64,000 bases of DNA from Anaerolineaceae bacterium UBA4781 (GCA_002403105.1 DHHD01000106.1:18-64017); one strand, 5' to 3'; counted from the stretch's first letter, positions 3,356 through 63,327 are shown. Numbers and translations: made by a program. The notes: a model not told the origin generated them from the sequence alone.

Positions 3356-4843
3356 ATGGTATCTTTTACTAACGTAACAAGTAATCGCCGTACAAAAATT
3401 GTTGCAACACTTGGGCCAAGCAGCAATACAGCAATTATTCTGGAAGAACTCATTAAAAGTGGTTTGGATGTTGCCCGCTTAAATTTTTCACACGGTACTC
3501 ACGAAAGCCATAGAGCATTGATCCAACTCATCCGCCAGACTGCTGAGAAACTTAATGAAACAATTGCCATTCTACAGGATCTGCAGGGCCCAAAGTTACG
3601 CGTAGGAGATTTACCCTCAGGTTCCATTCAACTAAAAGCCGGCCAAATAATACGTTTTGTCTGCATCGAAACAGAGGGGGGTGCTCATCCAGTAGAGAGT
3701 ATCGCAACCATCCCTCTGGATATCCCTGATGTATTCTCATCGTTAGCAGTTGGAAATCGTGTATTACTTGATGATGGTAAATTAGAAATGGAGATCATCG
3801 AAGTCGGGAATGATGAAGCCATGGCAAAAGTAACTTTGGGGGGGGAGCTGAAATCGAATAAAGGGGTAAATCTACCCGGTATCAGTTTGGATATCCCGGG
3901 TTTTACTGAGAAAGACCGCGAAGATCTTATTTTTGGATTATCGCAAGGTGTTGATGCGATTGCAATTTCATTTGTTCGTGACGCACAGGATGTGCAGTAT
4001 GTCCGCGATGCAATCCGTTCAATTGATCCCGAACAGCAAAATATTCCCATCATTGCTAAATTGGAACTGCCTGAGGCGATCAAAAATCTTGCATCGATCA
4101 TAGCCTGTGCAGATGGAGTAATGGTTGCACGGGGTGATCTGGCGGTTGAAACTTCTGCAGCGGCAGTTCCGATTATTCAAAAAGAAATTATCGAAATGGC
4201 AAATCGCAAAGCCAAACTTGTCATCACGGCTACCCAAATGTTGGACTCCATGATCCACAATCCCCGACCTACCCGAGCCGAAGCCTCTGATGTAGCCAAT
4301 GCCATTCTTGATGGAACGGATGCCGTCATGCTTTCTGGAGAAACCGCCAGCGGTGAGTATCCTATTGAGAGCGTACGAATGATGAATTCCATTATTCTTG
4401 AAGCAGAGAAGAACATGCATCGCTGGGGTAAATTCGCACCCTTCAAACAAATTAATAATGAGGATGATGCAATGGCGCTTTCATTGGCAGCGCGTGAATT
4501 GGCCAATGAACGAAATGTCTCCGCAGTTGCTGTCTTTACACAAAGTGGGCGTTCTGCAGTTCTCCAATCTAAAGCACGTCCTAACGTTCCTATTCTGGCA
4601 TTCACTCCAAATAAAAGGACATATCAACGTCTGAGTCTATATTGGGGTGTCATCCCATTCTTGGTTCCATTCTCCAGTACATTAAAAGACATGATCACTC
4701 ATGTAGAAGAAACAATGTTCAAATGTACAGATATCAAAGAAGGCCAGAAGGTTATTATTGTTTCCGGTTTTCCGATCGGAGCGATGCGTTCAACCAATCT
4801 TGCGCTGCTGCACACAATTGGCAGTATTCAAAACATCGATTGA
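3356..4843 (+). CDS. pyk: Pyruvate kinase
   Basis: 'RRTKIVATLGPS', 'ARLNFSHG', 'MVARGDLAVE' motifs. Confidence 0.9.
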   Translation: MVSFTNVTSNRRTKIVATLGPSSNTAIILEELIKSGLDVARLNFSHGTHESHRALIQLIRQTAEKLNETIAILQDLQGPKLRVGDLPSGSIQLKAGQIIRFVCIETEGGAHPVESIATIPLDIPDVFSSLAVGNRVLLDDGKLEMEIIEVGNDEAMAKVTLGGELKSNKGVNLPGISLDIPGFTEKDREDLIFGLSQGVDAIAISFVRDAQDVQYVRDAIRSIDPEQQNIPIIAKLELPEAIKNLASIIACADGVMVARGDLAVETSAAAVPIIQKEIIEMANRKAKLVITATQMLDSMIHNPRPTRAEASDVANAILDGTDAVMLSGETASGEYPIESVRMMNSIILEAEKNMHRWGKFAPFKQINNEDDAMALSLAARELANERNVSAVAVFTQSGRSAVLQSKARPNVPILAFTPNKRTYQRLSLYWGVIPFLVPFSSTLKDMITHVEETMFKCTDIKEGQKVIIVSGFPIGAMRSTNLALLHTIGSIQNID

Positions 4844-13841: not shown

Positions 13842-13904
13842 GTATACCTCCATGGTTTTCGGTAAGATTATGAATTAGTCAGATCTTACTGACTAAATAC
13901 TATT

Positions 13905-14055
13905 TTGGGGAAAGGGCACGGATAGTTTTTTGATTTTGTTATCCGGGAAGGCATCCGCCGAACTCTCGATTTTCTTGCACCGTTGTGCAATTAGTTCTAC
14001 CTTGCAGTAGAAAACCTTCATCCTCGTCATCCCATCCTGGATGGGATCAGGCGCT
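13905..14055 (-). ncRNA. glmS leader: glmS ribozyme
   Basis: The minus strand reads A|GCGCC ... GACGAGGAUGAAGG ... AAUCGAGAGUUCGGCGGAUGCCUUCCCGG, matching the remembered glmS ribozyme core; located directly upstream of glmS. Confidence 0.8.
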
Positions 14056-14095
14056 ATTCCTTTCCTTGGCTCTGGTCTTTCCAGAACCAAGGCGT

Positions 14096-14175: not shown

Positions 14176-14342
14176 GTGAGAAGAGTTCGAGTGCTTCGAC
14201 ACCGAAGGGGCAATTCTGCAAAACTTGCAGAAGAATCTCTCAGGTAAAAAGACTCACTGCCAATAAACTCTGGAGAGCATAATGGATGCACCGACGGGGC
14301 AAGCCGCTTTTGAAGGCGAATCTCTCAGGTAAAATAACAGAG
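14176..14342 (+). promoter_or_regulatory. Tandem glycine riboswitch (two aptamers)
   Basis: Aptamer 1 has P1 GTGAG/CTCAC (14176..14257) with 'CACCGAAGGGGCAA' and 'CTCTCAGGTAAAAAGAC'. Aptamer 2 has P1 CTCTG/CAGAG (14268..14342) with 'CTGGAGAG', 'GCACCGACGGGGCAA' and 'CTCTCAGGTAAAATAAC'. Confidence 0.85.
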
Positions 14343-14387
14343 ATGTACAATTTTTATGTACCTCAAAAAAATAAACAGGAGTAAAAG

Positions 14388-20380: not shown

Positions 20381-20409
20381 ATTATAAATGAGGAAAACTG
20401 ACATTTCAA
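20381..20409 (-). promoter_or_regulatory. Putative sigma-70 promoter for alaS
   Basis: Minus strand TTGAAA (20409..20404), 17-nt spacer, TATAAT (20386..20381). Confidence 0.5.
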
Positions 20410-20426
20410 TTCGAATACGTGGATTG

Positions 20427-22844
20427 CTATTTGGAAACAGAGAATTTGATCATTTTTCCATGGTCGTCCAGAGTAACCCGGGTATATTGTTTGAGCGTTT
20501 TATTATGGATCTGGAAACTTCTCTTGTATGTAAGAAATACACGTCCAGCTGTCTGATTCTGCATGGTAACTGCCCCTTTTGCGTCCCTTACCATGTTGAT
20601 CACTTTCATCTGTTTCTCACGAATACTCAAATCTGCACTTTCTATTCCGGGTAAGTATTCTTTTACAACTTCTTTTATATTCATAAGAATTTCAGATGAT
20701 ATTTTTGGAACTGCTACTGCATCCAGGTCCTGATCTCGAATAACTTGATAAGGATCCAGTACTTTTTCATCATCCTGAATTAAATGGTCTTCAGCTTGAG
20801 ATTCACTGTAATAGAGTGGATCACCATACAGCACAAATGACAGGAGTGTTTTTTGGTCTTCCCCATCTAAATAACCTTGCCTTCGCAGAATCGATTTAAC
20901 CAAATTCAATTTTGCCCTGATAAAAGCATCACCGACAGAATAGCTTCTCTCGATCAGATTCCAGAAAAGATACGCGAATTGGTCGGCTCCGATTAAGGGC
21001 GGGTAAACTGAACCATAAGCAATGCAGGTGGAACCGACAAACGCATGGCAGCCGGAGGTAAGAAATCGCAAACTGATGGCATCTTCGTTTATTTTTCCAA
21101 TAACATAGGCGCCGTAACATGCTTCCGAAAGTACGATGGTTGGATTCGTCGCCTGTGGGTCGATCAAACTGGGCTGTATGGCTACGGGGTAATCAGGAGT
21201 GGAATCGGTGTTCGAAATATCCTTTTGACCGTACCAGTTTGGTGAATCATCCAATCCATGTAGATTGAAATACGCATATTCAGCATCTTTTATATTGAGC
21301 ACGTCGAGATTATTGATATTATAAGGTGGAGAGACTCTAAGAAAATTAGCTTTCCCAATTGGTCGAAAAGCAGAAATGGATGATCTCTGCCAGATTGCTG
21401 TGGAATATCCATAATTATTATTTTTCTCAGTGATTTCCTGAAAAAGGTTTGCTACGGAATCCCATACTTTCAATGAATCGGAAACTTTTTCAACAAAAGT
21501 TTTCTTTTTATTAATTTTCTGATGCCATTGGATCGCGTCGCGCAATTGTTTTAACAACAAACTCGGATCATTACCCTTTTCATCTGGGAATCTTCCTACA
21601 GCCCATTCCGGAACAAAATAATTGCTGTCATCGCTCGCATATGGATTGTCGGATAAGACTTCACTATCAGAGTCATCGGTTGGGTTTGGTAAATGATGGA
21701 ATGGAACAATATCATCTCCACCGATGATCAACACTGCTCCAATTTTTTTGTCATGCTCATGCAAATAAGTCGAAAGATCATGCAGTGCTAATTTTACTTG
21801 CCATGGATCATTACTTTCAATTGCAGTAAGTCCGTATTGCAGCATCGTATTCTTGTCATCTGGTAAAAAGCTAAATGCGCTCCAATTTTTTTGCAGGTCA
21901 ATGGCAGCCGCGAGTTCCTGCATGCGCGCAAGAATCACTGTAAAAGTGTTTGCCCCATATTTTTTCTCGATCCCGCACCGTGTTGTAAGAATGACATAGA
22001 CGGGTTTTGCAAAAATACCTTTCGGCTGTGGTTCCAGGGGTTCTTCAACTCTGCGGGGTGTGGTTTTCTTTTGTTTTGCTTCTTGAGGTTCTTTCAAAAT
22101 CAGAGCAGAAATGACACTGTTTTCTTCCTTTTCGATTAAAAAACCGTTGCAATCTGGCCAAAGATGAGCATATTCGTGATTCGCTCCCCAGATTGCAGTT
22201 GCAACCAAACCAAGATGATCATTGTAGACTGCTTCGCGGATGATGTTGATCGCTTCAACATCCGAACCAAATTTAAACAAAGCATCAGCATAGATCAACA
22301 TAAAGTAAACACACTGTTTCCACTTTCCATGATATAGCTTGGCAAACTGTAGCGTGGAATAATCATCTTTCGCTTCAAGGATGATTCGCAAATGGTAGAT
22401 CGCAAATAAGACATTCTCAGGAAATTCTTGAAGAAGATCCAGAACTATTTTTTCTACATTTCCTGATTCTCCTTTTGATATAGCAAGCTTCACCTGGTTC
22501 AGACGATTTGCCCATTCGTGTTGGCTGGCCTGGGATGCTTTCCCTTGAAAAAAGGATAGAAATTCATAATAAAATTCGCGTTCTTCTTCATCTTTACTGT
22601 TTTTGTAAAGAGCTTCATAAGCACTTTCATATTCCGGATTAACTGCGATGATATTTTTTAACTTTTCTTTCCCCGCTTCTAATTCTCCCTGTTCAATGAG
22701 CGAACGTCCATACAGACAACTGATCTCAAGGTCACCAGGAAAGGTAGTATTCCAATCTTTCAGGCATTCTATGAACACGCTTCGTTCTTCTGTGGTGGAA
22801 GCTGTCAATTCCCATTGAAGAAGGTCTTTCCTGGTAATCCTCAT
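20427..22844 (-). CDS. Helical-repeat (TPR-like) protein with C25/clan-CD cysteine-peptidase-like domain, no signal peptide
   Basis: 'VLIIGGDDIVP ... SDNPYASDD ... VGRFP' followed by 'YFNLHG' (His529-Gly) and 'LSEACYG' (Cys576), in the order and spacing of gingipain-type C25 peptidases. Motif-level call only. Confidence 0.6.
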   Translation of the reverse strand: MRITRKDLLQWELTASTTEERSVFIECLKDWNTTFPGDLEISCLYGRSLIEQGELEAGKEKLKNIIAVNPEYESAYEALYKNSKDEEEREFYYEFLSFFQGKASQASQHEWANRLNQVKLAISKGESGNVEKIVLDLLQEFPENVLFAIYHLRIILEAKDDYSTLQFAKLYHGKWKQCVYFMLIYADALFKFGSDVEAINIIREAVYNDHLGLVATAIWGANHEYAHLWPDCNGFLIEKEENSVISALILKEPQEAKQKKTTPRRVEEPLEPQPKGIFAKPVYVILTTRCGIEKKYGANTFTVILARMQELAAAIDLQKNWSAFSFLPDDKNTMLQYGLTAIESNDPWQVKLALHDLSTYLHEHDKKIGAVLIIGGDDIVPFHHLPNPTDDSDSEVLSDNPYASDDSNYFVPEWAVGRFPDEKGNDPSLLLKQLRDAIQWHQKINKKKTFVEKVSDSLKVWDSVANLFQEITEKNNNYGYSTAIWQRSSISAFRPIGKANFLRVSPPYNINNLDVLNIKDAEYAYFNLHGLDDSPNWYGQKDISNTDSTPDYPVAIQPSLIDPQATNPTIVLSEACYGAYVIGKINEDAISLRFLTSGCHAFVGSTCIAYGSVYPPLIGADQFAYLFWNLIERSYSVGDAFIRAKLNLVKSILRRQGYLDGEDQKTLLSFVLYGDPLYYSESQAEDHLIQDDEKVLDPYQVIRDQDLDAVAVPKISSEILMNIKEVVKEYLPGIESADLSIREKQMKVINMVRDAKGAVTMQNQTAGRVFLTYKRSFQIHNKTLKQYTRVTLDDHGKMIKFSVSK

Positions 22845-22859
22845 GAATCAAATTGGTCC

Positions 22860-25800
22860 TTATCTCTTCTCAAAAATACGATTTGCCAGAATAATACCCA
22901 GCTTTTCACGTAAATCATCATCCGTTGGATTCAAGGCCGCTGCTTTCCGTAGATAGGTTTCAGCTTTTTCTGAATCACCTAGTTGATTATATACTTTGGA
23001 TGCCTTTTCATATATTAAATAATGTTCTTTGCAGTTATCGATGGCAGCTTTAATAATAGCTTCTGCCCGGTGTCCCTCACGCCGGTTGATAAGTGTTTCT
23101 GTTAATTCCAAATATGCTTCCATTTCATGTGAGTTCTGTTTAATGGCTTTATCCAAGTGGAATACTGCATTATCCAAATTCCCTTTTTTTATCGATAAAA
23201 TACCGATCATTTTATGGATTTCTGACTGATCATCATCCATCTGAATTGATTTTTCATAAACCTGGAGTGGGTCATCCTGATTACCGGCTTCATAAAGCAG
23301 CCGAGCATAGCGATTGAGTAACTCTTTATCTGGATTTTCTGATTTTTCTAAATATCCTTCAAGAAAATCAATCGCACGTTTCTTCCCACGAACTTTTTCC
23401 AGATAGGCAGCTTTTTCAAGAATCAATTGGTCATTTACGATATTTGAATCCAGCGCTTTTTCGATGATTTCCAACCCGAACTCGTCATTCTCTTGCAAAG
23501 ATTTAATTTTTGCCAATTCGATGATGACTTCTGGTGATTTTGGATCGATCCGATAGGCATCACGAATTAACTCCATCGCTTTTGGAATGCTTCCTAACTG
23601 CTCGGCAATACGCGCTTGAATTAAGAGCAGCTCAAGATCATCCTTGAAAGATGATTTCAACATATTGATAGTACCCAATGCTTTCCTGAATTCCCCATTT
23701 TGATAATATGCATTGACTAATTTTCGAAGGATTCCATGATTACTCTCGAATAGTTCTTGGTTTTTTTCAAAGATCTCAATGACTTTTTTGTAATCTTTGA
23801 TCGAATATAGATTTTCCAAATATTCTTTTTTATTTTCTTGATTTTTTGGATCTAAAGTGACAGCCTGTTCGGAATGGGAAACCGCCTTCTGTAATTCACC
23901 TTTTTCCTCATATAAGCTTGCCAACTGGGCACACCAGGTTGATTCGTCTTTTAGAAATCCTATGGCTGTTTCGAGCGCATTAATAGCCAGATCAGTTTCT
24001 TTCTCGTATATGAATATTTTTGCAAGTCCAGCCGAGAGATATGGATTTTTCTTATTTTGAAAAAGCGCAGCATTGAACGCCGAAATGAGATCGCGATATT
24101 GTTCTTCGGGGTACAAAGCCAACGCAATGAGAGGAAGGTCATATTCTTTTTGATTGGCTTCGATGATCTTGAGAATGCTGTCATAATCTTTCATCTGGTT
24201 GCTTTGCAGTATTGCACAAACCACAGAAATAAATTCAATTTTTGTTTGCTGTATATCTTTATTTGAATAACCAGCATTCAGCAAAAATTCATGAATACCT
24301 GCATATTGGTTCTGTATATCCGTAGAGAGAAGACTTATTTGTTCAGATAGATTCAAGAATTCTGGATTTTGAAGAATAGCGGGCAGATTTCGGTTGACTC
24401 CAATGTTCTTGAAACTCCATTCTTTCAAAGCAAGTTTTAGTATCTGACTGAGGGCATTTGCTTTTAGTGCTGAAAAATATGCTGGGAAATCAAAACATTG
24501 CAGATATGTTTGAACCGCTTTTTCCCAATCCCCCATTTCAAAAGCACAATCCGCTTCCCATTTTGGGAAATTGATGAGGGAAGCCAGAATGTTTTTATCC
24601 AGGTCACTTGCGCTATTCTTAGGTTCGGATTGCTTTTCGGCCGCTTGTTCATAGATGGTTTGGGCATCAACGAAATTATTATTTTTTCGTAATAAACGAG
24701 CTTTCGCGAAAAGGATGCGCTGGTCTTCCAGCATTTCTGCTGAGAGCGTATTGATCTTTGCAGCAGCCGCAACTTCATTCCCATTTTCCAGAAGGATATT
24801 CAGGATAAAGCCAGTCAATACCCGCACTTTTTGCACATCTTGTAAGGTGTTCAAGTTCTCAAGCAATCGTACCCAATCTATCGCTCCTTGATCACCATTT
24901 TTTAACCAGGCATAAATTGCTAAATAAACACTTGTTACAACATCTTCGGTTGGAAAATCGGACAGAGAATTCATGAATCGATAATCCAATTCATCATTCT
25001 TCGCCTCCAACATTGTTGAAAGCGCCAATTTAATCCAAATATCATTCGAAGAAAATGCCTCGGTCCATTCGGAAGGGAAAATGCTGTGTACATGTTTCGG
25101 TAAATTGAAAAGTTGCTTTTCAATCGTTTGTCTGTTTTCCAATGTTTGGATAAGTTTTTGAGGTTCAGAATTTTTGCCATCAGCCAAAGCCATGATTGCT
25201 TCGCGAACAATATTCCAAACCTCAGTTTGTTGGAGAGGATCCAGACAGGAAACTGCATTCGCATAATCGCCTTGATTCCAATAGACGCAGGCTTTTAGAA
25301 TACATGTTTCCGGATCATTCTGATTTGATTTTTGAAGTTTTTGAATGATCTTGATGCTCAAATCGTGAAGATGAGATTCCTGAGCAACCTTTAGTGCAGT
25401 TTGCAGATCTTTTGCAGTAGTTTTTTCCAAAGCGATCAGGTCATTGATGATCAATTTTGTATCGTTTTGTGAACCATATTGGTTTTCAAAACGCATTCTT
25501 TCTACAAGAAAATCCGGTGAGGATTGATGGTTCTTGGCTTCATCTGAAAAATAAGAACGCACTTCTTCCGGTTTTCCTAATTTCAGCATTTGGTTGCCAT
25601 ACCAGGCTGTAATCCTTCTATCTTTTGTACAGATCAAACGAGCTTTTTTTGCAATCGCCACCGCTTCTTCACCAAGATTTTTTTCACTATACGCATCTAC
25701 CAATAAGCCATAGATGGAAAGGTTTTCGGGTTGTGCTTGAGATGCTTCATTCAACAAAGTAATCGCTGTTTCTGTCTGTCTGATCTTCAGCATGGTGCAT

Positions 25801-27965
25801 GCCAAGCCCACCTGAGCTCGCCATAGATCCTGCCGATTTTTACTCAAAGAATTTTCCAGGATCAATTCTTTGAATGCTGTAGTCGCTTTGTTCGTATCAT
25901 CCAGGAGAAACTGCACTTCTGCTTCGATTAATCCTCTCCAATAATTTTCTGCAGGTAACTTTTGGATATTATGCAAAATGGAATTAAGTTCAGAAATTTC
26001 CAGTCGTTGAGTACCAAGAGGAAAAATAGTTTTGTTGCTTTTCAAGGTAGATATGGATTCCAATACAATAAAATCCGCGTTCTCCCCTTTTTCCTCTTTT
26101 ATTAATTTTAAAGTTTCATTCGCTTGATCGTTTTCACCATTTTCCATCAGAACATCGGCGGTTATCATTCCGAGGTCTGGATTCAGTGGGAAAGAGTGAA
26201 TCGCTTTTAACGCAAGCTCATAAGCATGTTCAGTGAGTCGTTTTTGATTCAGATAGTCCACGATAGCTGCAACTGCTTCCGGATTACCATTTTCCACATC
26301 GATCTTCTCGATCAACGACAATCCACGATCTTCATCACCACAATCCAGCATTGCTAGAATTAACTGTTCATAAAAACCTTTCCGCTCCTGAAATATTTCG
26401 AGTGTTTGGTTAAGCACCTGTTCGGCATTTTCTTTTTTCTTTGTCTTGCAAAGACAATAATATAAATTGATCCAAGTTTTATAATCCGTACTTCCGGCAG
26501 AGATGGATTGTTCAAAATGATTTTGGGCTTTTTCCCACTCTTCCACATCCATATAGAGATCACCAATCTCAAATAAAGACTGTGCGTTTTCACTGAATAG
26601 ACCGGAGGGTAGACCTTCCAGCCGCTGCTTAACAGCGATTGTCTCATCTTTTTCCAGCAGTGCTTTGGATTCCACATAAAACTGGGTGAAATCTAAACTT
26701 ACTGCCTGTTTCTTGTCGACCTTATTGATTTGTTGAAGTGCAGCTTTCCATTGGTGGTTTTCGATTAGGTAATCAAATAGTTCTTTATCCAGATCTTGAT
26801 TTTTATCATCTAGAATTCTGGCAATTTTCAAATAATGGATTGAGCGGAGATGATCGCCGAGTGAATGATACAGTTCAGCGATCTGCAGTAGAAATTGACT
26901 GTCTTTTGGATTTTTGGATATTTTTTCTTCAATGCTATGTAGATATTCTTCAATGTCCTGGTAGGTCGTCTTCTTCAAAACAAGGGATTGGTTAAGATCA
27001 GGAATTCTTTTCCAATCATATTGTTGGAGTGATGCTTGAGTATGATCTGCCTGTACTTTCTGAGACTCTCTATGTGACAAGATATTCTGCTGTTTTTTTT
27101 GGACACCCTGCTTTAAGGCATCCAGTTTTTGCATCAGTTTCTCAATTTCAAAAATGGATTCTGTTTCATTCCCTTCCAGAAAATGAATGTCAGCTAAATA
27201 ATTTAATTTTTGAAGATCCGAAAGTTCTTGCTGTAAAGTACTTTGAGATTCCGATGAAATCACCTTGCTTGTTTTCTCTATCTCGCCTTGCGTCAACAAA
27301 CGAGTTAATGGGATCCGACCTTCTTTCGCAATGAACTGCAGAATTTCTATTTTTTCTTCACTATTTAAGTCGATCAGGAGATTTTTCAGGTCTTCTTCCT
27401 GAGCCGTGAGAGACACAGGATTGCAGAAAAGACCATATATGAACATTTTCTTGATTTCAAGATTTTTTGAAGCCGCTATTTCTTTGGTAATGAATTCGCT
27501 TGAATTAACAAGTCCAAGCAAACAAGCCGCCACGAGTCCTGCATTATGATTGAATTGAAAATCATGCAAGAATTCTTTTTCAAATTCGGTCCATTTTTTG
27601 GATCCCAGCATAGTAAAGAATCCTTGTGAAATTTCTGCAGCCTGAACTAGATCGATCGCATTCTCTTCTTTCAGAGCAGAATCGGGTACTTGAGAAAAAA
27701 CCTGTTCCTCATTTAACTTTTGATCTTTGATTATCTCTGAAAGATCATATTTCCAATTCTTTTCATCTTTTAAAATAAATGCAAAATAGACCGGCTTCCA
27801 ATTTTCTAAAGTTTTTAACCGGTCTATCTCTTTTTTTTCGCTCAGTTCGAGCTGAGAAAGTGCTTCAAGGACTCTTTTATCTTGCAGGAGGCAAGTAACG
27901 AGAACCTGTTTTTCTTCCTCTTGGAAATTATTCTCGATGAGCTCGAGGAATTCCGCAGGTATCAT
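22860..27965 (-). CDS. 1701-aa TPR-repeat protein
   Basis: Uninterrupted 5.1-kb ORF. Recurrent 34-residue TPR-like patterns (A/Y/L at repeat positions) through most of its length; no signal peptide and no P-loop seen. Confidence 0.8.
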   Translation of the reverse strand: MIPAEFLELIENNFQEEEKQVLVTCLLQDKRVLEALSQLELSEKKEIDRLKTLENWKPVYFAFILKDEKNWKYDLSEIIKDQKLNEEQVFSQVPDSALKEENAIDLVQAAEISQGFFTMLGSKKWTEFEKEFLHDFQFNHNAGLVAACLLGLVNSSEFITKEIAASKNLEIKKMFIYGLFCNPVSLTAQEEDLKNLLIDLNSEEKIEILQFIAKEGRIPLTRLLTQGEIEKTSKVISSESQSTLQQELSDLQKLNYLADIHFLEGNETESIFEIEKLMQKLDALKQGVQKKQQNILSHRESQKVQADHTQASLQQYDWKRIPDLNQSLVLKKTTYQDIEEYLHSIEEKISKNPKDSQFLLQIAELYHSLGDHLRSIHYLKIARILDDKNQDLDKELFDYLIENHQWKAALQQINKVDKKQAVSLDFTQFYVESKALLEKDETIAVKQRLEGLPSGLFSENAQSLFEIGDLYMDVEEWEKAQNHFEQSISAGSTDYKTWINLYYCLCKTKKKENAEQVLNQTLEIFQERKGFYEQLILAMLDCGDEDRGLSLIEKIDVENGNPEAVAAIVDYLNQKRLTEHAYELALKAIHSFPLNPDLGMITADVLMENGENDQANETLKLIKEEKGENADFIVLESISTLKSNKTIFPLGTQRLEISELNSILHNIQKLPAENYWRGLIEAEVQFLLDDTNKATTAFKELILENSLSKNRQDLWRAQVGLACTMLKIRQTETAITLLNEASQAQPENLSIYGLLVDAYSEKNLGEEAVAIAKKARLICTKDRRITAWYGNQMLKLGKPEEVRSYFSDEAKNHQSSPDFLVERMRFENQYGSQNDTKLIINDLIALEKTTAKDLQTALKVAQESHLHDLSIKIIQKLQKSNQNDPETCILKACVYWNQGDYANAVSCLDPLQQTEVWNIVREAIMALADGKNSEPQKLIQTLENRQTIEKQLFNLPKHVHSIFPSEWTEAFSSNDIWIKLALSTMLEAKNDELDYRFMNSLSDFPTEDVVTSVYLAIYAWLKNGDQGAIDWVRLLENLNTLQDVQKVRVLTGFILNILLENGNEVAAAAKINTLSAEMLEDQRILFAKARLLRKNNNFVDAQTIYEQAAEKQSEPKNSASDLDKNILASLINFPKWEADCAFEMGDWEKAVQTYLQCFDFPAYFSALKANALSQILKLALKEWSFKNIGVNRNLPAILQNPEFLNLSEQISLLSTDIQNQYAGIHEFLLNAGYSNKDIQQTKIEFISVVCAILQSNQMKDYDSILKIIEANQKEYDLPLIALALYPEEQYRDLISAFNAALFQNKKNPYLSAGLAKIFIYEKETDLAINALETAIGFLKDESTWCAQLASLYEEKGELQKAVSHSEQAVTLDPKNQENKKEYLENLYSIKDYKKVIEIFEKNQELFESNHGILRKLVNAYYQNGEFRKALGTINMLKSSFKDDLELLLIQARIAEQLGSIPKAMELIRDAYRIDPKSPEVIIELAKIKSLQENDEFGLEIIEKALDSNIVNDQLILEKAAYLEKVRGKKRAIDFLEGYLEKSENPDKELLNRYARLLYEAGNQDDPLQVYEKSIQMDDDQSEIHKMIGILSIKKGNLDNAVFHLDKAIKQNSHEMEAYLELTETLINRREGHRAEAIIKAAIDNCKEHYLIYEKASKVYNQLGDSEKAETYLRKAAALNPTDDDLREKLGIILANRIFEKR

Positions 27966-27975
27966 ATGGCCCTTT

Positions 27976-28296
27976 CTACAGGCTGGTGATCAAGTAATAA
28001 GCAACACCAAATAAAACAAATGTGATCAGAACAAGGAATACGCCAATTCCGGCTTTCGTTTTTACCATCTGATTGATCGTTTCCAACAGTGATGTGGTAT
28101 TTCCCATCATTTCTGAAACATCTTCAACGATTCCTTTTTCCATTAATTTTGCCGATTGTTCCGTAATGGAGGTAAATTCATCACTCTTTACTTTGAAAGC
28201 CAGGATGATGATTCCCACAAAGAACGTGATAACACCCATCACTGCTAAAATAAGCGCTAAGGTTAATGTAAAATCATTTGCATTTAGATTGATCAT
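27976..28296 (-). CDS. 106-aa two-TM membrane protein
   Basis: ATG at 28296 preceded by GGAG-5 nt. Two hydrophobic helices flank a charged loop; the track start 28407 runs back into the upstream gene. Confidence 0.6.
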   Translation of the reverse strand: MINLNANDFTLTLALILAVMGVITFFVGIIILAFKVKSDEFTSITEQSAKLMEKGIVEDVSEMMGNTTSLLETINQMVKTKAGIGVFLVLITFVLFGVAYYLITSL

Positions 28297-28322
28297 AATA
28301 TCTCCTTTTCTAGAGATATTGT

Positions 28323-28338
28323 TGCAATAATTATGCCA
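28323..28338 (-). promoter_or_regulatory. Sigma-54 (-24/-12) promoter
   Basis: Minus strand TGGCAT-AATTA-TTGCA, i.e. GG (28337/28336)-N10-GC (28325/28324). Lies 28 nt upstream of the ATG at 28296 and overlaps the activator stop codon. Confidence 0.7.
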
Positions 28339-29527
28339 ATTTTTCTGTAAGATCCAATGGTAAATCTGGAATATCGATCTTTTCTCCATCACAAAACAGC
28401 ATGGCACGCTCGATAGTATTGCGTAACTCCCTTATATTTCCCGGCCAAGAATACTTCATCAATACCTCCATCGCCGGTGGAGTAACATCAATGACATTCA
28501 AACCTAACCGTGGATTCAATTCTTTTATAAAGAATCCAACAAATTCTGGAATATCATTTTTCCTTTCACGCAAAGGCGGCAAATCCAGATCCACAACTTT
28601 CAAACGATAATACAGATCTTCTCTAAAAGCATTCTCTTTTATCAGTTCTTTTAGGTTTCTATTGGATGCAGCCAGTATTTGTACATCTACTTTAACCAGA
28701 TCGGTTCCTCCCACCCTGCGAAAAGCTTTTTCTTCGATAGCTCTCAATAATTTTGCTTGGATTTCAAGCGGCATCGAAGATATTTCATCCAGAAACAAGA
28801 TTCCGTCATCCGCAATCTCCATTAACCCATGTTTTCTGGTTTTTGCATCAGTATAACCACCCGGGTCATGTCCAAATAGTTCAGATTCAAGCAAAGTTGA
28901 TTGAATGGCAGCACAATTGATCGCGACAAATTGCTTGGCAGCTCGCGGTCCTGATTTATGAATAAAACGAGCCAAGATTTCTTTTCCTGTGCCAGTTTCT
29001 CCGGTGATGAGAACAGAAACCATTGCCCGGGAAGCTTTCAGCGCTTGCGCAACCACATTTTTTATCTTTTCATTAGAACCCAAAACAAAATCCACAGAAT
29101 CAAGTTGTTTTTGACGGTAGTGTTCTATTTCTCGTCGCATCTGGATAAGTTCACACGCGCGAGCAATAGAATTCTCTAATACTTTAAAATCTGTGATCGG
29201 TTTGGTCAAGAAATCATGCGCTCCATTGCGCATGGCGTCTACTGCCATTTCGATATCTCCAAAACCCGTGATCAGGATAACAGGTGGACGATTTTGCTGC
29301 TGCTGCAGTTCTTTCAAAAGGGTTTGCCCATACCCATCCGGTAGCTGAACATCCAGCAAGACAATATCCCCATTTCCAATTTTAAGTTGATTCCGTGCTT
29401 CTTCAATGGTACCAGCTTCATTAACTTCAAAGTTCTTTGATTTTAAAAATACGCTCAGGTTTTTTCTTGCATTTACTTCATCGTCAACGATCAGAACTGT
29501 GAAACTCACCTTATTCTCCTTCTGCAA
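28331..29527 (-). CDS. Sigma-54-dependent response regulator (REC + AAA+), no C-terminal HTH
   Basis: REC with 'IVLLDV' acceptor Asp; AAA+ with 'GETGTGKE', 'ESELFGH', 'GNIRELRN'. The protein ends about 28 aa after sensor II. Confidence 0.85.
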   Translation of the reverse strand: MQKENKVSFTVLIVDDEVNARKNLSVFLKSKNFEVNEAGTIEEARNQLKIGNGDIVLLDVQLPDGYGQTLLKELQQQQNRPPVILITGFGDIEMAVDAMRNGAHDFLTKPITDFKVLENSIARACELIQMRREIEHYRQKQLDSVDFVLGSNEKIKNVVAQALKASRAMVSVLITGETGTGKEILARFIHKSGPRAAKQFVAINCAAIQSTLLESELFGHDPGGYTDAKTRKHGLMEIADDGILFLDEISSMPLEIQAKLLRAIEEKAFRRVGGTDLVKVDVQILAASNRNLKELIKENAFREDLYYRLKVVDLDLPPLRERKNDIPEFVGFFIKELNPRLGLNVIDVTPPAMEVLMKYSWPGNIRELRNTIERAMLFCDGEKIDIPDLPLDLTEKLA

Positions 29528-31406
29528 TTGGCAAAGTTATATGAAAAACAGTCCCACCAGGGAAAGATTCTACGGTTATTTCTCCATTATGTGCGGCAAC
29601 GATCTCTTTAATGATCGCCAGACCCAACCCCGTTCCCTGCAAACTGAATGAAACAAAGGGTGTGAAAAGGTTTTTCAATATTTCATCAGGAATTCCTGGT
29701 CCCGTATCGGAGACATTCACCTTGAGGACTTGCTCGTCCGATTTCTCAATTTTTATCGCCAGCGTACCTCCATTTTGTTGTTTCATCGCTTCGACGGCGT
29801 TGCTGATAAGATTCGTAAACACTTGTTCCAATGATCGTAAATCTCCTGAGATCATTGGAAGTGCATCTTCACATTGGTAAACCATTTTCACATTATTCCG
29901 TACCAGTTTCGCATCCCATTTTTCTATGATGCTCTTAACCAACAAATCCAAATTGAGAGGTTTCAATTTATTTTCCAATGGTTTGGCATAGGAAAGAATT
30001 GAATTCATTAGATGATCTAATCGGACGCAATCATTCATCATGCGGGTGATCATGTCAGATTGAGTTTCATTTCCTTCTGTCATACTCTGTAAAACCTGCA
30101 ATCCCATCACCATATTATTAACAGGGTTGCGTACCTCATGTGCAAATGTTGCAACCGATTTACCCAAAGCAGCTTGATGTTCCAGTTCTTTGAGGTTTTT
30201 CTTTAATCCATCCATTTCGCGTGTGGATTTAATAAGGATCAGGAATTGAGTATCAGGATCGTTTGCATCACATGGAATCACGCGCATCTTGACAGGTTCT
30301 ATTTCCCCATCTCTTCGGCGCAAGAATACAAGATCTTCACATTGCTCAATTCTTTTCTCAAATGACTCTTGAAAGAGCATGCTGATCTTGGGATCAGTTA
30401 CCAGGTACGAATCAACAGCCAGTTTTTGAGTTTCCCATTTTGAATATCCCAACAAACGTTCCATGTTTTGATTGATTTCCAAAACATTTTTCTCATTGTC
30501 AAGATAGATCACACCCTCATCGATGGTATCAATCAAATAAGAAAGCACTTCTTGGGTTTTAGAAGTATCCTTTTGAATTTGTGCATGGATGGTTTTTTGT
30601 GCATAAAGGGAGGTTCCATACTCAAACAAATTCATAAAGTCTTCTACGATCTCTAAGAGAGAATCATCTCGGACGTATTCTTTCCAACCCGCAATGACAA
30701 TTCCCTTTTCTGCTTTGTCTGTTGTAAAACGCTGGACGATCAGAGTGTTGATCAATTGTTCTCTTGCAGAACGGTGTAAATGATTGATCGCTCGACTTCC
30801 CTGCTGCCACAGACTGTATTCTGCCAGGCTTTCCAACTCCTGGATGGAATATTCGTCGGGCAGATGAAACAGTTTTTGATTGGATAAACCAGATACTTGA
30901 AAGGTATTATCTTTCTCGACATACAAACCCAACAGATCAAAATGAAAGACTTGCTCTAATATTTCCAATCCTTTTTCACAAAAGGAGGTAAAAGTTTCTT
31001 CGCGAGTTTCAATTAAAGCAGCGAATGATGAAAGGAAAGATTTTAAAGCATCAAAATCCTGAAAGTTTCCCTGGGTTTTTTGAATGATCGAATACACTTT
31101 CCAGTGTTGTTTGTCATCCAAGAATTCTCGCACGAGTTCAATCTCTATCGGAACCCTGTTCTTTCTTAGGATTTTATAGATCACCTTTCCATTTTCCGCT
31201 CGTTCCTCAACGATCACAGAACGGAAAGGTGTCTTTATTATTTCTTGTTTTGTGAATGCAGTCATTTCAATCAAAGCACTGTTGACCAGGGCAATTTCAT
31301 CATCTTGATCCACCAGAACGCAGGGCTGTTTGAACAAATTGATTAGAGATTCAATTTCAAGGAAGGAAAGGTTCTTATTTTTAAGCAGGTCGATGAATGC
31401 TGTCAT
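29511..31406 (-). CDS. Soluble PAS-domain sensor histidine kinase
   Basis: H-box 'FAHEVRNP', N-box 'NLISNAVEA', G-boxes 'DTGPGI' and 'GTGLGLAI'; no TM helices; PAS-like N-terminal repeats. Confidence 0.85.
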   Translation of the reverse strand: MTAFIDLLKNKNLSFLEIESLINLFKQPCVLVDQDDEIALVNSALIEMTAFTKQEIIKTPFRSVIVEERAENGKVIYKILRKNRVPIEIELVREFLDDKQHWKVYSIIQKTQGNFQDFDALKSFLSSFAALIETREETFTSFCEKGLEILEQVFHFDLLGLYVEKDNTFQVSGLSNQKLFHLPDEYSIQELESLAEYSLWQQGSRAINHLHRSAREQLINTLIVQRFTTDKAEKGIVIAGWKEYVRDDSLLEIVEDFMNLFEYGTSLYAQKTIHAQIQKDTSKTQEVLSYLIDTIDEGVIYLDNEKNVLEINQNMERLLGYSKWETQKLAVDSYLVTDPKISMLFQESFEKRIEQCEDLVFLRRRDGEIEPVKMRVIPCDANDPDTQFLILIKSTREMDGLKKNLKELEHQAALGKSVATFAHEVRNPVNNMVMGLQVLQSMTEGNETQSDMITRMMNDCVRLDHLMNSILSYAKPLENKLKPLNLDLLVKSIIEKWDAKLVRNNVKMVYQCEDALPMISGDLRSLEQVFTNLISNAVEAMKQQNGGTLAIKIEKSDEQVLKVNVSDTGPGIPDEILKNLFTPFVSFSLQGTGLGLAIIKEIVAAHNGEITVESFPGGTVFHITLPIAEGE

Positions 31407-32836
31407 TTTGTCTTTTCTTTTCGTTGATAAGCCGGTAAAATACCTTCCATATCGCGGTATTTTGCAACCGTTCTGCGCGCAATGTGCATATTTTTCTTTT
31501 CCAGTTTCTTTACGATCTCCAGATCGCTCATCGGTTCTTTTTCTTTTTCGACGATTTCCTTAATTTCCGTACGTATTTGCAAACTCCGATCGAAAAATAC
31601 AGAGAGTGGATATACTTTTTTATTGGTTAATTGGATCGTTTTGCTGGAAACTGCCCTTGAAATCGTGGACTCATGAACACTAAGTTTTTTCGCGATCTCT
31701 GCCCGTGTGATCGGTTTGAGATATTTATCACCCTCACGGATATATTGTTCCTGAATTTCAACCAGAATCTGCGCCATGCGCAGGATGGTATTGGTTCTCT
31801 GCTGTAGGCATTTAATAAAAAGGGAAGCCTTTTCAAGGTCTTCCCTCATCTTCATTTTTGTCTCTTTATCGACATTTTTCAAAGCAGCATGGTAATTGCT
31901 GTTCAGAATTAAATTACTATTTGCCGGTTGAAATACCTCGATAACGATTGGATTTTGAGGATTATTCTCCAAGAAACTTAATACAATGTCTGGTGCATCG
32001 AGCTGCAATAGTTCATTTTCTTTAGGATTTCTTACATCCCCCCAGTTCGAACGTGCCGGAAAAGGATTCAAATTTTCGGTAATGAAATTTGCAATTTCTT
32101 CCACCTGTTTGATAGAAACGCCATATTGCTGTGCGATCTCCGAAAATTGTTTTTTAAGAAGAGTGTGGTAATTATTGGTAATAATATTCTCTATTAATTC
32201 CGGAATTTCCTTATTCTTCTTTAATTCATCGAGTTGAATCAGCATTGCTTCTTGAGCGTCTTTCGAACCTACACCAACCGGATCGGCATGCTGAATCATG
32301 CTTTTTACTTTTTCAACACTGGATATTGGAATGTGATAGTAACTGGCTAATTCCAGTACATCTACATCTACAAATCCGTCATCATCCAATTGTGTCAGAA
32401 TACTGGCGGCAACTAACTTCTCACGGTCATCCAACTCCATTCCAACCTGGCGCAATACATATTCGGGGAGTGTTTGTCTATCAACCGTTCCATCTTCGAA
32501 ATAATCATCACTATCACCAACCTGATCAGAGGTTGGAAATTCTCTGATGGATACAAATGTTAAATACTGAACATCTTGGTTGAGCTGGTTGTTCATGCAA
32601 TTCTTGCAGAACGATCCGAAAGAGATTTCAGTTCCGCAAATTGTGCAGTGATGAATCTCGTCAACCTCCAAGGCAGGATTTTCTGCCAGATTCTTTTGGA
32701 TTTCTTCTTCGACTTCCCCATTTCCCATATTCAACAATGTCATTGTTTGGGCTAAATGGGCCGTTGCCTGGGGTTTCGTTTCTGTTTTATATTGGGTGTT
32801 GATTTTTTGATACATTTGATTTTGAGTATAGCGCAA
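31403..32836 (-). CDS. rpoN: RNA polymerase sigma-54 factor
   Basis: RpoN box 'ARRTVAKYR', HTH 'RAEIAKKLSVHESTISRAV', region I Gln/Leu-rich N-terminus. Start is TTG at 32836 (ATG alternative at 32815). Confidence 0.9.
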   Translation of the reverse strand: MRYTQNQMYQKINTQYKTETKPQATAHLAQTMTLLNMGNGEVEEEIQKNLAENPALEVDEIHHCTICGTEISFGSFCKNCMNNQLNQDVQYLTFVSIREFPTSDQVGDSDDYFEDGTVDRQTLPEYVLRQVGMELDDREKLVAASILTQLDDDGFVDVDVLELASYYHIPISSVEKVKSMIQHADPVGVGSKDAQEAMLIQLDELKKNKEIPELIENIITNNYHTLLKKQFSEIAQQYGVSIKQVEEIANFITENLNPFPARSNWGDVRNPKENELLQLDAPDIVLSFLENNPQNPIVIEVFQPANSNLILNSNYHAALKNVDKETKMKMREDLEKASLFIKCLQQRTNTILRMAQILVEIQEQYIREGDKYLKPITRAEIAKKLSVHESTISRAVSSKTIQLTNKKVYPLSVFFDRSLQIRTEIKEIVEKEKEPMSDLEIVKKLEKKNMHIARRTVAKYRDMEGILPAYQRKEKTK

Positions 32837-32890
32837 ATGGGTTGCCTATGCAATATTCATACCAATTTAATTGATGATACAATTTTTCGC

Positions 32891-35155: not shown

Positions 35156-35836
35156 CTAAAGGGGATATGCAATAATGAATAAACGACCCCACGAATCAAC
35201 ACTGTTTTTCTGGATACAGGTTTGTAAGGTCACATGAGGATCACCCGAATACATTTGGTAGAAAACATCCGCAGCAGAATAAGTTTCTCCAGTCACAAGA
35301 TCAGTGAAATCACTGAAAGAAGAGTTGGGAGAGAGTGCCTGATATTGATAGATTTCTTCAACTTTGTAAAAGTCAATATCACCATCTCCATATATGATCT
35401 CAATAATATTTCCATAAGTCAGATCAGAGAAATATTGCCCGGCAGCAGTATTATGTGCCAGCAAACCGATCGTATTATATTTCTTTGCCATACGGAATTG
35501 CGTAGCAACATCATCGTCTGTTGAAACATAACCTGCATTACTGGAAGGTTGTTGAACAACTTTCAATGCAAAAACGTTTGTTACATATACTCCCCTTATA
35601 CTTTCACTCTGTCCATCACTAACAGTATTCACAAACTGACTGATGGTTATTTGCTCAGGCTGAACTGCGTAATCATCATTAAAGCTTATGAATGAATTTA
35701 ATTTCACCGGAATGTTAACAGAGCCCGATCTTGTGATCGGAATTTTTATAGTAATTGCTTGATTAAAGAATAGAAAAACCGAAGTAAGCAGAATGATTTG
35801 AAGCAGTTTTTTCGTTTGTCTGGCTCTCATTCTCAA
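35156..35836 (-). CDS. Membrane-anchored protein with sortase-like His / TLxTC / Arg pattern
   Basis: N-terminal hydrophobic anchor, then 'LLAHN', 'VTLQTCI' and 'GRLFIIAYP' in sortase order. Motif-level only; ATG 35830 is an alternative to TTG 35836. Confidence 0.45.
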   Translation of the reverse strand: MRMRARQTKKLLQIILLTSVFLFFNQAITIKIPITRSGSVNIPVKLNSFISFNDDYAVQPEQITISQFVNTVSDGQSESIRGVYVTNVFALKVVQQPSSNAGYVSTDDDVATQFRMAKKYNTIGLLAHNTAAGQYFSDLTYGNIIEIIYGDGDIDFYKVEEIYQYQALSPNSSFSDFTDLVTGETYSAADVFYQMYSGDPHVTLQTCIQKNSVDSWGRLFIIAYPL

Positions 35837-35890
35837 TCCTTTTCGATAAGAGCGCTGAAAAAACTGGTATTTTATTAAATACTCTCGTTT

Positions 35891-35970
35891 TCGGTAGTCT
35901 GGCGATCATTGCATTTTTATGCTGTAGATCCATGACTTTGCGTCCCCAGTTTTCACTGAGTTTGCTCTTA
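35891..35970. repeat. Structured direct repeat, copy 1
   Basis: Aligns without gaps to 36041..36120 (offset exactly 150 nt, 64 of 80 positions identical by hand count). Confidence 0.8.
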
Positions 35971-36040
35971 TCGAACGATTCACGAACACAAAAAAACCTA
36001 TTTACACAGGTTTCTGTCTCTTTAATAAATAAAAAAGACT

Positions 36041-36120
36041 TCGGAAACCTGGCGATCATTGCGTTTTCACGCTGTAGACCCATAGTTTTGCGTCCCCGGT
36101 TTTCACCGGGTTTGCCTTTT
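36041..36120. repeat. Structured direct repeat, copy 2
   Basis: See copy 1; contains hairpins GCGT-TTTC-ACGC and CCCGG-TTTTCA-CCGGG. Confidence 0.8.
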
Positions 36121-36218
36121 CGTGTCTCGTTTTATAAATGTTCTAGTAAAATTCTATCATAAATCTACCAATTTTGAGATATAACTCACAAGAGTTTTAT
36201 TTGAGAGAAGGTCAGTTC

Positions 36219-43123: not shown

Positions 43124-43205
43124 GGGGAAGTGCTGGAATTGGCAGACAGGCATGACTTAGGATCATGTGCCGCAAGGCGTGAGGGTTCAAGTCCCTCCTT
43201 CCCCA
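43124..43205 (+). tRNA. tRNA-Leu (anticodon UAG), type II with long variable arm
   Basis: Acceptor GGGGAAG/CTTCCCC, D stem CTG/CAG, anticodon stem CATGA/TCATG with loop CTTAGGA. Variable arm TGCCGCAAGGCGT, T arm GAGGG-TTCAAGT-CCCTC; CCA not encoded. Confidence 0.9.
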
Positions 43206-63182: not shown

Positions 63183-63327
63183 GGTTAATAAGGACAATTC
63201 ATTCAATTATCCTTTTTACATCTCCTTTCCAAAGAGGGAGGCGTTCGTGTTTCCACTTACACCCTAGCGGTCTCAAAACCATAACATTCATCGTCGTAGA
63301 TTAAGAGACTCGAAGATGCACTCTTTG
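63183..63327 (-). promoter_or_regulatory. Candidate riboswitch aptamer / structured leader, class unassigned
   Basis: Closing helix CAAAGAG (63327..63321) / CUCUUUG (63236..63230), internal helices, a 10-bp hairpin at 63190..63214, and an antiterminator option against the terminator. Confidence 0.5.

Follow-up and report, generated by a model that had tools for sequence, protein, structure and literature searches.

Sigma-54 is usually a shared factor that works with many activators. Activators that consist of a receiver (REC) domain and an AAA+ domain and lack a DNA-binding domain activate the sigma-54 holoenzyme from solution, and FlgR, CtcC, and FleT, which all lack a DNA-binding domain, act on small regulons. 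Here, we compare such systems with a sigma-54 locus on the minus strand of a 64,000-nucleotide stretch of DNA (the window) from Anaerolineaceae bacterium UBA4781 (GCA_002403105.1, DHHD01000106.1:18-64017). In this locus, rpoN, a PAS histidine kinase gene, and the gene of an activator without a DNA-binding domain are followed by genes for a 106-aa protein with two transmembrane (TM) helices (the 2-TM protein), a 1701-aa tetratricopeptide repeat (TPR) protein, and an 805-aa protein that resembles the C25 peptidases. An earlier note, made from the sequence of the window alone, had read the six genes as a dedicated, signal-gated unit. The analysis reported here makes it probable (roughly 0.6) that they form a clade-wide, self-contained sigma-54 module of the Anaerolineae (Chloroflexota), which would regulate cell division or septation in filaments.

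FlgR, CtcC, and FleT have been named as activators without a DNA-binding domain, and REC-AAA+ proteins of this type, such as FlgR and CtcC, form a recognised class (PMC3162934). The FlgS-FlgR-sigma-54 system of Helicobacter pylori and Campylobacter resembles the present locus in that a soluble kinase is paired with an enhancer-free REC-AAA+ activator with no DNA-binding domain and serves a small regulon (PMC3162934). It differs in that its genes do not share one operon with rpoN and its targets are flagellar. The activator of the window scores 313 bits against the FlgR model, whose cut-off is 750, and is therefore not an FlgR orthologue; nor are we aware of any sigma-54 site on rpoN for the FlgS-FlgR system. 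In Chlamydia, CtcB-CtcC is likewise a two-component pair whose activator has no DNA-binding domain, and it controls a developmental sigma-54 regulon (PMC3162934). Unlike the locus described here, this pair has no physical linkage to rpoN and no TPR/C25 module. The targets of CtcB-CtcC are late-stage membrane and secretion genes. The Hk2-Rrp2-RpoN-RpoS pathway of Borrelia burgdorferi (PMC3037356) has a single kinase/activator pair and a sigma-54 whose known direct target is rpoS, and its activation works without an enhancer. Rrp2, however, keeps its helix-turn-helix (HTH) domain and serves to switch on a further sigma factor, and there is neither a cassette nor an autoregulatory compound promoter. 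The placement of rpoN, kinase, and activator in one operon, the predicted compound sigma-70/sigma-54 promoter, and the different targets set the present locus apart from all three systems.

On the effector side, the 805-aa protein shares with the gingipains and PorU (family C25, clan CD) the Kgp fold, PF01364 in family members, the His-Gly...Ala-Cys order, and an immunoglobulin-like beta-sandwich that follows, at about 9% identity to Kgp in structural alignment. Those Bacteroidota proteins carry signal peptides and domains of the type IX secretion system and are either secreted or exposed on the cell surface, whereas the 805-aa protein is cytoplasmic and begins with TPR repeats. TPR-CHAT (Csx29) and separase resemble it in architecture only, as helical repeats fused to an intracellular caspase-like cysteine protease. 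Neither sequence nor structure matches the 805-aa protein to CHAT or separase, it has no context of clustered regularly interspaced short palindromic repeats (CRISPR), and its activation would be transcriptional, through sigma-54, whereas TPR-CHAT and separase are activated by RNA or securin. The earlier note knew of no description of such an arrangement, and the literature searched yields none for Anaerolineae sigma-54 systems, for sigma-54 promoters on ftsZ, or for the TPR/C25 family.

The cassette and its conservation in Anaerolineae

The six co-directional open reading frames (ORFs) lie on the minus strand where they had been placed before, and most of the earlier layout holds (Table 1). 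The rpoN and kinase genes overlap by ATGA, gaps of 34, 10, and 15 nt follow the activator, 2-TM, and TPR genes, and alaS has a TTGAAA-17-TATAAT promoter of its own. Two starts have to be revised. The rpoN gene most likely begins at ATG 32815 and not at TTG 32836, because an orthologue of 84% identity (L001) carries an in-frame stop upstream. The 17-nt overlap that had been reported between kinase and activator is probably an artefact of ORF calling, since a GTG start at 29509 behind AAGGAG gives a 392-aa activator, in agreement with its orthologues (387-400 aa), and changes the spacing to a 1-nt gap.

Table 1. Coordinates of the cassette and of other features in the 64-kb window, counted from its first letter
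Feature	Position	Strand	Basis
rpoN (sigma-54), 470 aa from ATG 32815	31403..32815	(-)	Pfam and comparison of orthologue starts
Soluble PAS histidine kinase, 631 aa	29511..31406	(-)	PAS, HisKA, HATPase_c
REC + AAA+ sigma-54 activator without DNA-binding domain, about 392 aa from GTG 29509; ORF reaches TTG 29527	28331..29509	(-)	
Sigma-54 promoter (predicted) TGGCATAATTATTGCA before the 2-TM gene	28323..28338	(-)	Motif, position weight matrix, and conservation
106-aa protein, two TM helices	27976..28296	(-)	Hydropathy scan
1701-aa cytoplasmic TPR protein	22860..27965	(-)	TPR families only
805-aa cytoplasmic TPR + gingipain-like (C25) protein	20427..22844	(-)	Family, structure, and dyad
Sigma-54-type -24/-12 element TGGTATGAATATTGCA before rpoN	32849..32864	(-)	Motif search
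Sigma-70-type promoter TTGCAT-17-TATACT of rpoN	32825..32853	(-)	-35 overlaps the sigma-54 -12 element
Sigma-70-type alaS promoter, marks the unit boundary	20381..20409	(-)	11/12 matches
glmS ribozyme before glmS	13882-14066	(-)	
Glycine riboswitch before gcvP genes	14260-14350	(+)	
tRNA	43124-43205	(+)	
Molybdenum cofactor (Moco) riboswitch	63206-63327	(-)	

The sigma factor matches Sigma54_AID, CBD, and DBD above the Pfam cut-offs and contains the RpoN box ARRTVAKYR that had been read from its sequence. Its score against the NCBIfam equivalog TIGR02395 is 267.2 bits, slightly under the cut-off of 277.35, a shortfall that is probably due to a Cys4 insert. This insert, CxxC-N9-CxxC, occupies residues 57-73 of the 470-aa form (window ~32600-32650, minus strand), between region I and the core-binding domain, and its four cysteines are invariant in an alignment of four orthologues, down to 47% identity. 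The insert is zinc-ribbon-like in appearance, and the motif is also visible in the rpoN genes of two further loci (L004 and L059). No published description of a CxxC-N9-CxxC insert in sigma-54 was found. A separate zinc-ribbon protein, FlgZ, stabilises RpoN in H. pylori (PMC3372290).

The kinase contains PAS, HisKA, and HATPase_c domains (Pfam) and no TM segment in a 19-residue hydropathy scan, so it can be regarded as soluble, as had been proposed. The activator has the Pfam domains Response_reg, Sigma54_activat, and AAA_lid (PF00158 at 3e-65) and carries the Walker motifs GETGTGKE and LFLDEI. The reading that it lacks a DNA-binding domain is sustained: the AAA lid ends at residue 396 of 398, so that neither HTH nor HTH_8 could fit behind it. 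All 45 complete orthologues that were measured lack the domain as well; 43 of them are 387-400 aa long, and the remaining two were called as shorter ORFs of 255 and 296 aa. A second activator is not found within the 64-kb window.

A homologue search with the 805-aa protein retrieved 357 relatives, and all taxon-labelled matches come from Anaerolineae or other Chloroflexota metagenome-assembled genomes. Scanning species-representative genomes, we found a C25-like protein in at least 559 species. The genome loci that were kept (n = 79) are all from Anaerolineae or other Chloroflexota and include the cultured Longilinea arvoryzae. The gene-neighbourhood search that the earlier note had recommended was run by tblastn with the window proteins and shows the order rpoN-kinase-activator-2TM-TPR-C25. 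Of 54 informative genome loci, 44 have the activator gene immediately 5' of the 2-TM gene, and alaS stands immediately 3' in 39 of the 50 loci with at least 1.5 kb after the C25 gene (12 are listed without alaS, so 39/51). The rpoN-centred metagenome loci (n = 80, 41-86% identity) all have a divergent trmFO and then rpoN-kinase-activator, and the 2-TM gene directly follows the activator in 45/52; all 50 of the rpoN-centred loci that are informative on the arrangement have it. The single physical unit of sigma factor, signalling pair, promoter, and 2TM-TPR-C25 operon first seen in the window is, therefore, conserved across Anaerolineae. Its neighbours in the window are housekeeping genes, namely glmS, gcvP, alaS, trmFO, and hflX.

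Predicted sigma-54 promoters of the cassette

The element TGGCAT-N5-TTGCA that had been noticed after the activator gene is an exact match, TGGCATAATTATTGCA, which overlaps the activator stop codon and ends 26 nt before the 2-TM start codon; an AAGGAG Shine-Dalgarno sequence and then the ATG follow. Its score of 27.6 is the best in the window with a position weight matrix (PWM). One exact motif match in 64 kb is by itself non-significant, and the significance of the 2-TM promoter comes from its position and its conservation in relatives. There, the 15-nt TGG-N9-TGC core starts 40-63 nt upstream of the 2-TM ATG, and a PWM score of at least 15 is reached at this position in 103/107 loci as against 0/1580 shuffled windows. 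Because the sites from which the PWM was built had been picked with a regular expression, the positions that it fixes are circular; the promoter case therefore rests on position, on the shuffled windows, and on two independent tests given below, that of the -10 hexamer and that of the codons. The 2-TM promoter is also kept in nine genomes without the upstream rpoN/kinase/activator genes or the ftsZ block described below (L040, L045, L048, L049, L058, L062, L068, L069, and L071), and the regulatory link therefore outlives loss of the physical link. Two sigma-54-type elements stand ~80 nt apart before the 2-TM gene in L040, L045, L062, and L069.

A second sigma-54-type site, TGGTATGAATATTGCA, went unmentioned in the earlier note and is located directly 5' of rpoN. 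The canonical form TGGCAY-N5-TTGCA reaches a PWM score of at least 15 upstream of rpoN in 74/79 rpoN-centred relatives and in 0/1580 shuffled windows, and the end of the 21-nt PWM site lies 14-59 nt (mostly 25-50) from the aligned position of the rpoN ATG. The window site has T for C after GG and a low PWM score, as do the sites of the closest relatives L080 and L081. A -10 hexamer with at least 5/6 consensus matches is found 16-18 nt after TTGCAN in 68 of the 74 relatives (TATACT in 62), and the same test at the 2-TM promoter gives 11/103, which is the background level. The sigma-54 -12 element therefore doubles as a sigma-70 -35 hexamer. This arrangement predicts that rpoN is under a conserved compound sigma-70/sigma-54 promoter and that the cassette autoregulates. 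Two staggered sigma-54-type elements before rpoN are seen at a distance of ~16 nt in L087, L115, L117, L122, and L159 and of ~29 nt in L156. In the window (32813-32830, minus strand), the TATACT hexamer is separated from the rpoN ATG by 9 nt and there is no Shine-Dalgarno sequence, so the rpoN message made from the sigma-70 promoter would have little or no leader in the window subclade, L080 and L081 included. In most relatives, a GGAGG-type Shine-Dalgarno sequence precedes rpoN.

The two cassette sites are the only credible sigma-54 sites in the window; a third PWM match, at 3400-3420, is antisense inside a gene. Across the genome-set loci (~1.4 Mb), ten matches with a PWM score of at least 17 fall outside the 2-TM promoter position, and none of them lies outside the module: two are 5' of rpoN, two are cassette promoters of L077 and L079, five are at the 3' end of the TPR gene, and one falls within the L050 TPR gene. 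The conserved C-terminal TPR peptide LGA[IVL][ILV]ALNLVH is encoded in many Anaerolinea/Longilinea-type loci by CTTGGCGCGATTCTTGCA (LGAILA), which fits the sigma-54 consensus just 5' of the C25 gene (L028 9912-9932, L039, L066, L075, L076, and many others) and may be an internal promoter. This site is ruled out as part of the window system, where CTGGGTATTATTCTGGCA is found instead.

Proposed effector proteins and the ftsZ block of sister lineages

The 106-aa protein contains two TM segments, as had been described, at residues 6-39 and 77-106 by hydropathy. From the flanking Lys residues, we infer that its conserved loop (KGI[AV]EDV..GN) faces the cytoplasm. Orthologues of the 2-TM protein are present in nearly all loci. 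The 1701-aa protein proved to be TPR-only, as stated before, in that Pfam gives TPR families alone, and a hydropathy scan finds no TM segment and no signal peptide. Its orthologues are 1700-2000 aa long, and their genes always stand between the 2-TM and C25 genes. The TPR stop and the C25 start overlap as ATGA in many relatives, which suggests translational coupling and would fit a stoichiometric complex.

The 805-aa protein had been described as a helical-repeat protein with a clan-CD peptidase-like dyad. Family, structure, and dyad agree in making it C25- or gingipain-like, but the protein has no profile match of its own: no Pfam or NCBIfam model is matched, and PF01364 is missing even at E up to 1. 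PF01364 (Peptidase_C25) is matched by 23/32 of its relatives (best 1e-16). In P0004, which is 78% identical, the match scores 44.3 bits against a cut-off of 23 and joins residues 346-676 to profile positions 45-370 of 374. When 32 relatives that are 30-78% identical to the window protein are aligned, no variation is seen at residues H529-G530 and E574-A575-C576, which provide the ordered His-Gly / Ala-Cys dyad of clan CD. In an AlphaFold2 model, residues 1-220 are TPR-like, residues ~280-680 form a gingipain-like alpha/beta domain, and residues 738-804 form a beta-sandwich. Foldseek places Kgp at the top of its matches of this model to the PDB (4rbm and 6i9a; E 9e-8, about 1e-7; probability 1.00; TM-score 0.47 normalised to the target), and neither CHAT proteases nor separase are among the top matches. 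A PDB sequence search with the full-length profile of the 805-aa protein returned TPR proteins only; the C25 link came from the family members and the structure. Hydropathy shows no hydrophobic N-terminus, signal peptide, or TM segment, and the protein is therefore cytoplasmic. With E up to 1e-30, its C-terminal 529 residues retrieve 406 clusters (50% identity), of which the best 150 are mostly 800-1040 aa long and match at their C-terminal part, with about ten shorter entries that are apparently truncated.

In several Anaerolineales lineages, a block of genes for x444, FtsZ, two small proteins, and a membrane protein of ~250 aa lies between the activator and the 2-TM gene. Loci with ftsZ inside the cassette are L077, L132, L135, L155, L158, L160 (complete genome CP070785.1), L161, L163, L164, L167, and L170. 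The block FtsZ contains the Tubulin and FtsZ_C domains (Pfam). The x444 proteins, about 444-445 aa long, form an uncharacterised family for which 1634 members are counted at E up to 0.001; they have no Pfam match, and their profile has no PDB match. There are no Pfam matches for the small proteins and the membrane protein encoded after ftsZ, and in L077 the membrane protein shows by eye an LCP-like motif, NILVIGVDD. The x444 gene is directly 5' of ftsZ at 15/15 Anaerolineales loci examined (e.g., L158 14602-18438; L160, L161, and L163-L170).

In the ftsZ-containing loci, sigma-54 sites precede rpoN and x444, and a further one falls within the last part (3' end) of x444, at ~40-90 nt upstream of the ATG of ftsZ. 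The codons over the ftsZ site are Gly GGC, Ile/Leu/Val xTT, and Ala GCA at 13/13 loci, for which the background frequencies are 0.32, 0.20, and 0.18, whereas the peptide varies (DGTSIAT, DGTVLAT, DGINVAS, AGMRIAS, and others). Since the codons are fixed despite a varying peptide, the ftsZ site is a DNA-level signal. Isolated x444-ftsZ blocks, for which neither rpoN nor TPR/C25 genes are found within 10 kb, occur in L165, L166, L168, and L169, and all four have exactly two PWM matches in 21 kb, at the x444 and ftsZ positions. In the isolated blocks and the ftsZ-containing relatives together, matches with a PWM score of at least 12 are nearly all at rpoN, x444, ftsZ, or the 2-TM gene, with the exception of one weak intragenic match in L167. 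The predicted sigma-54 targets of these sister lineages include at least the operons of rpoN and ftsZ, the x444 gene, and the genes for 2TM-TPR-C25. The earlier claim of a dedicated system with a single target operon does not hold in these relatives, where rpoN, x444, and ftsZ are preceded by sigma-54 promoters too; the regulon appears small, coherent, and division-centred, and not to be one dedicated operon.

Elsewhere in the window, two tandem c-di-GMP-I riboswitch aptamers (35890-36126, minus strand; 85 and 82 bits) precede a 226-aa ORF at 35156-35836 (minus strand). This ORF has no Pfam match; by eye, its N-terminus is hydrophobic and LLAHNTAAG ... TLQTC ... GR looks like a sortase pattern, which suggests a sortase-like protein controlled by cyclic di-GMP.

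A proposed circuit and its alternatives

A circuit can be proposed in which the sigma-70 promoter gives basal transcription of the rpoN, kinase, and activator genes. The cytoplasmic PAS kinase would sense an intracellular cue and phosphorylate the REC domain of the activator. Because it has no DNA-binding domain, the activator would act from solution on the sigma-54 holoenzyme, as FlgR and CtcC do, and in its phosphorylated form it would open two promoters, that of rpoN and that of the 2TM-TPR-C25 operon. At the rpoN promoter, the sigma-70 and sigma-54 holoenzymes would be in competition for one piece of DNA: with the signal off, a closed sigma-54 complex would occlude basal rpoN transcription, and with the signal on, positive feedback would set in. 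The 2-TM protein as anchor, the giant TPR protein as scaffold, and the clan-CD cysteine peptidase with its fused TPR repeats would most likely build a membrane-tethered cytoplasmic complex, whose C25 peptidase may cleave cytoplasmic or divisome-associated substrates. Control of division is proposed because x444, ftsZ, and three small genes share the cluster in sister lineages, with sigma-54 promoters before x444 and ftsZ. Gene order, domains, and both promoter elements with their conservation are observed; the signal, the way in which autoregulation works, the assembly of a complex, the activity of the protease, and, for the window genome, the role in division are inferred. A bolder form of the proposal makes sigma-54 of the Anaerolineae, with one PAS kinase and one enhancer-independent activator, a master switch of division that transcribes ftsZ and the divisome TPR/protease genes and gates septation or fragmentation through a self-amplifying loop. 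This form is tentative and, at present, rather doubtful; no description of such sigma-54 wiring of division was found for any bacterium in the literature searched.

Several points weigh against a clade-wide division module. Neither ftsZ nor x444 lies within the window, and the division link is therefore extrapolated to it from other lineages; the best 120 matches listed in the FtsZ and x444 searches are filled by Anaerolineales, with the Pelolinea-like lineage of the window outside them. The genomes that carry the linked ftsZ may have other ftsZ copies. The rpoN-proximal site of the window is a weaker variant (TGGTAT), and the sigma-54-contacting loop of its activator (28900-28920, minus strand) reads GGYTDA in place of the canonical GAFTGA, with the Thr kept, while the orthologues mostly have GAFTGA, GSFTGA, or GAFTSA. 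Transcription starts at both -24/-12 elements are predicted, and the interaction of the 2-TM, TPR, and C25 proteins and the peptidase activity are presumed. The 805-aa protein of the window is below Pfam detection for C25, and its AlphaFold model is moderate (pLDDT, the predicted local distance difference test, is 73.6), with low confidence at residues 530-545 beside the catalytic His.

The activator and sigma-54 promoter counts cover the window and the sampled loci, which weighs against the module in the same way and leaves some room for an ordinary general sigma-54 regulon in which rpoN stands by chance beside one of several pairs and one of many targets. The sigma-54 promoters at x444 and ftsZ of relatives, which make more than one operon, point in the same direction. 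Such a regulon is nevertheless unlikely, as every sampled rpoN relative precedes the same kinase and the same activator, the promoter of rpoN itself bears a sigma-54 site, and an activator without a DNA-binding domain cannot tell promoters apart through enhancers. In the window, neither a further activator nor a further credible site is seen, the strongest matches in the ~1.4 Mb of genome-set loci stay within the module, and even at a PWM threshold of 12 the matches at x444-ftsZ loci are nearly confined to rpoN, x444, ftsZ, and the 2-TM gene. 

The identity of the effectors invites two other explanations. TPR repeats paired with a clan-CD-like protease in filamentous bacteria, together with a weak match of the 2-TM protein to the PADLOC '2TM effector' (E 0.0059), could indicate an anti-phage or programmed-cell-death system inducible by stress, analogous to TPR-CHAT (Csx29) or to the orthocaspases of multicellular bacteria. 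The stress or phage-defence role that the earlier note had considered is, however, disfavoured by fixed synteny, a housekeeping setting, and effectors without a PADLOC system match. The TPR protein, the C25 protein, and the kinase have no PADLOC matches, no CHAT match is seen by Pfam or among the relatives, the top Foldseek match is gingipain and not CHAT or separase, and there are no CRISPR genes in the neighbourhood. Gene order and the trmFO/alaS flanks are constant among the relatives retrieved, unlike in patchy defence islands, and co-transcription with ftsZ is predicted in sister lineages, so that a defence system is very improbable. The C25-like domain could also be non-degradative, either of a processing or transpeptidase type or a non-catalytic binding module, with the TPR proteins assembling an envelope or septal structure. 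The C25 family includes the sortase-like PorU, and the LCP-like membrane protein of the ftsZ-containing operon in L077, seen by eye and with no Pfam match, would suit this idea. The invariant dyad in all 32 aligned relatives argues for catalysis, and a protein with no signal peptide or TM segment cannot reach envelope substrates of the PorU type; we regard a non-degradative role as improbable.

If the preferred reading of a clade-wide division module is correct, a whole bacterial class seems to keep sigma-54 as a compact, autoregulated, single-input switch, which would also be a clean natural example of enhancer-independent activation. Its targets are a very large uncharacterised family set, to which sister lineages add ftsZ itself. 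Anaerobic digesters and sediments are rich in filamentous Chloroflexota, whose cell biology has hardly been explored. The finding, if true, would tie sigma-54 to the control of division and would place a cytoplasmic gingipain-like protease at the divisome of filamentous Chloroflexota.

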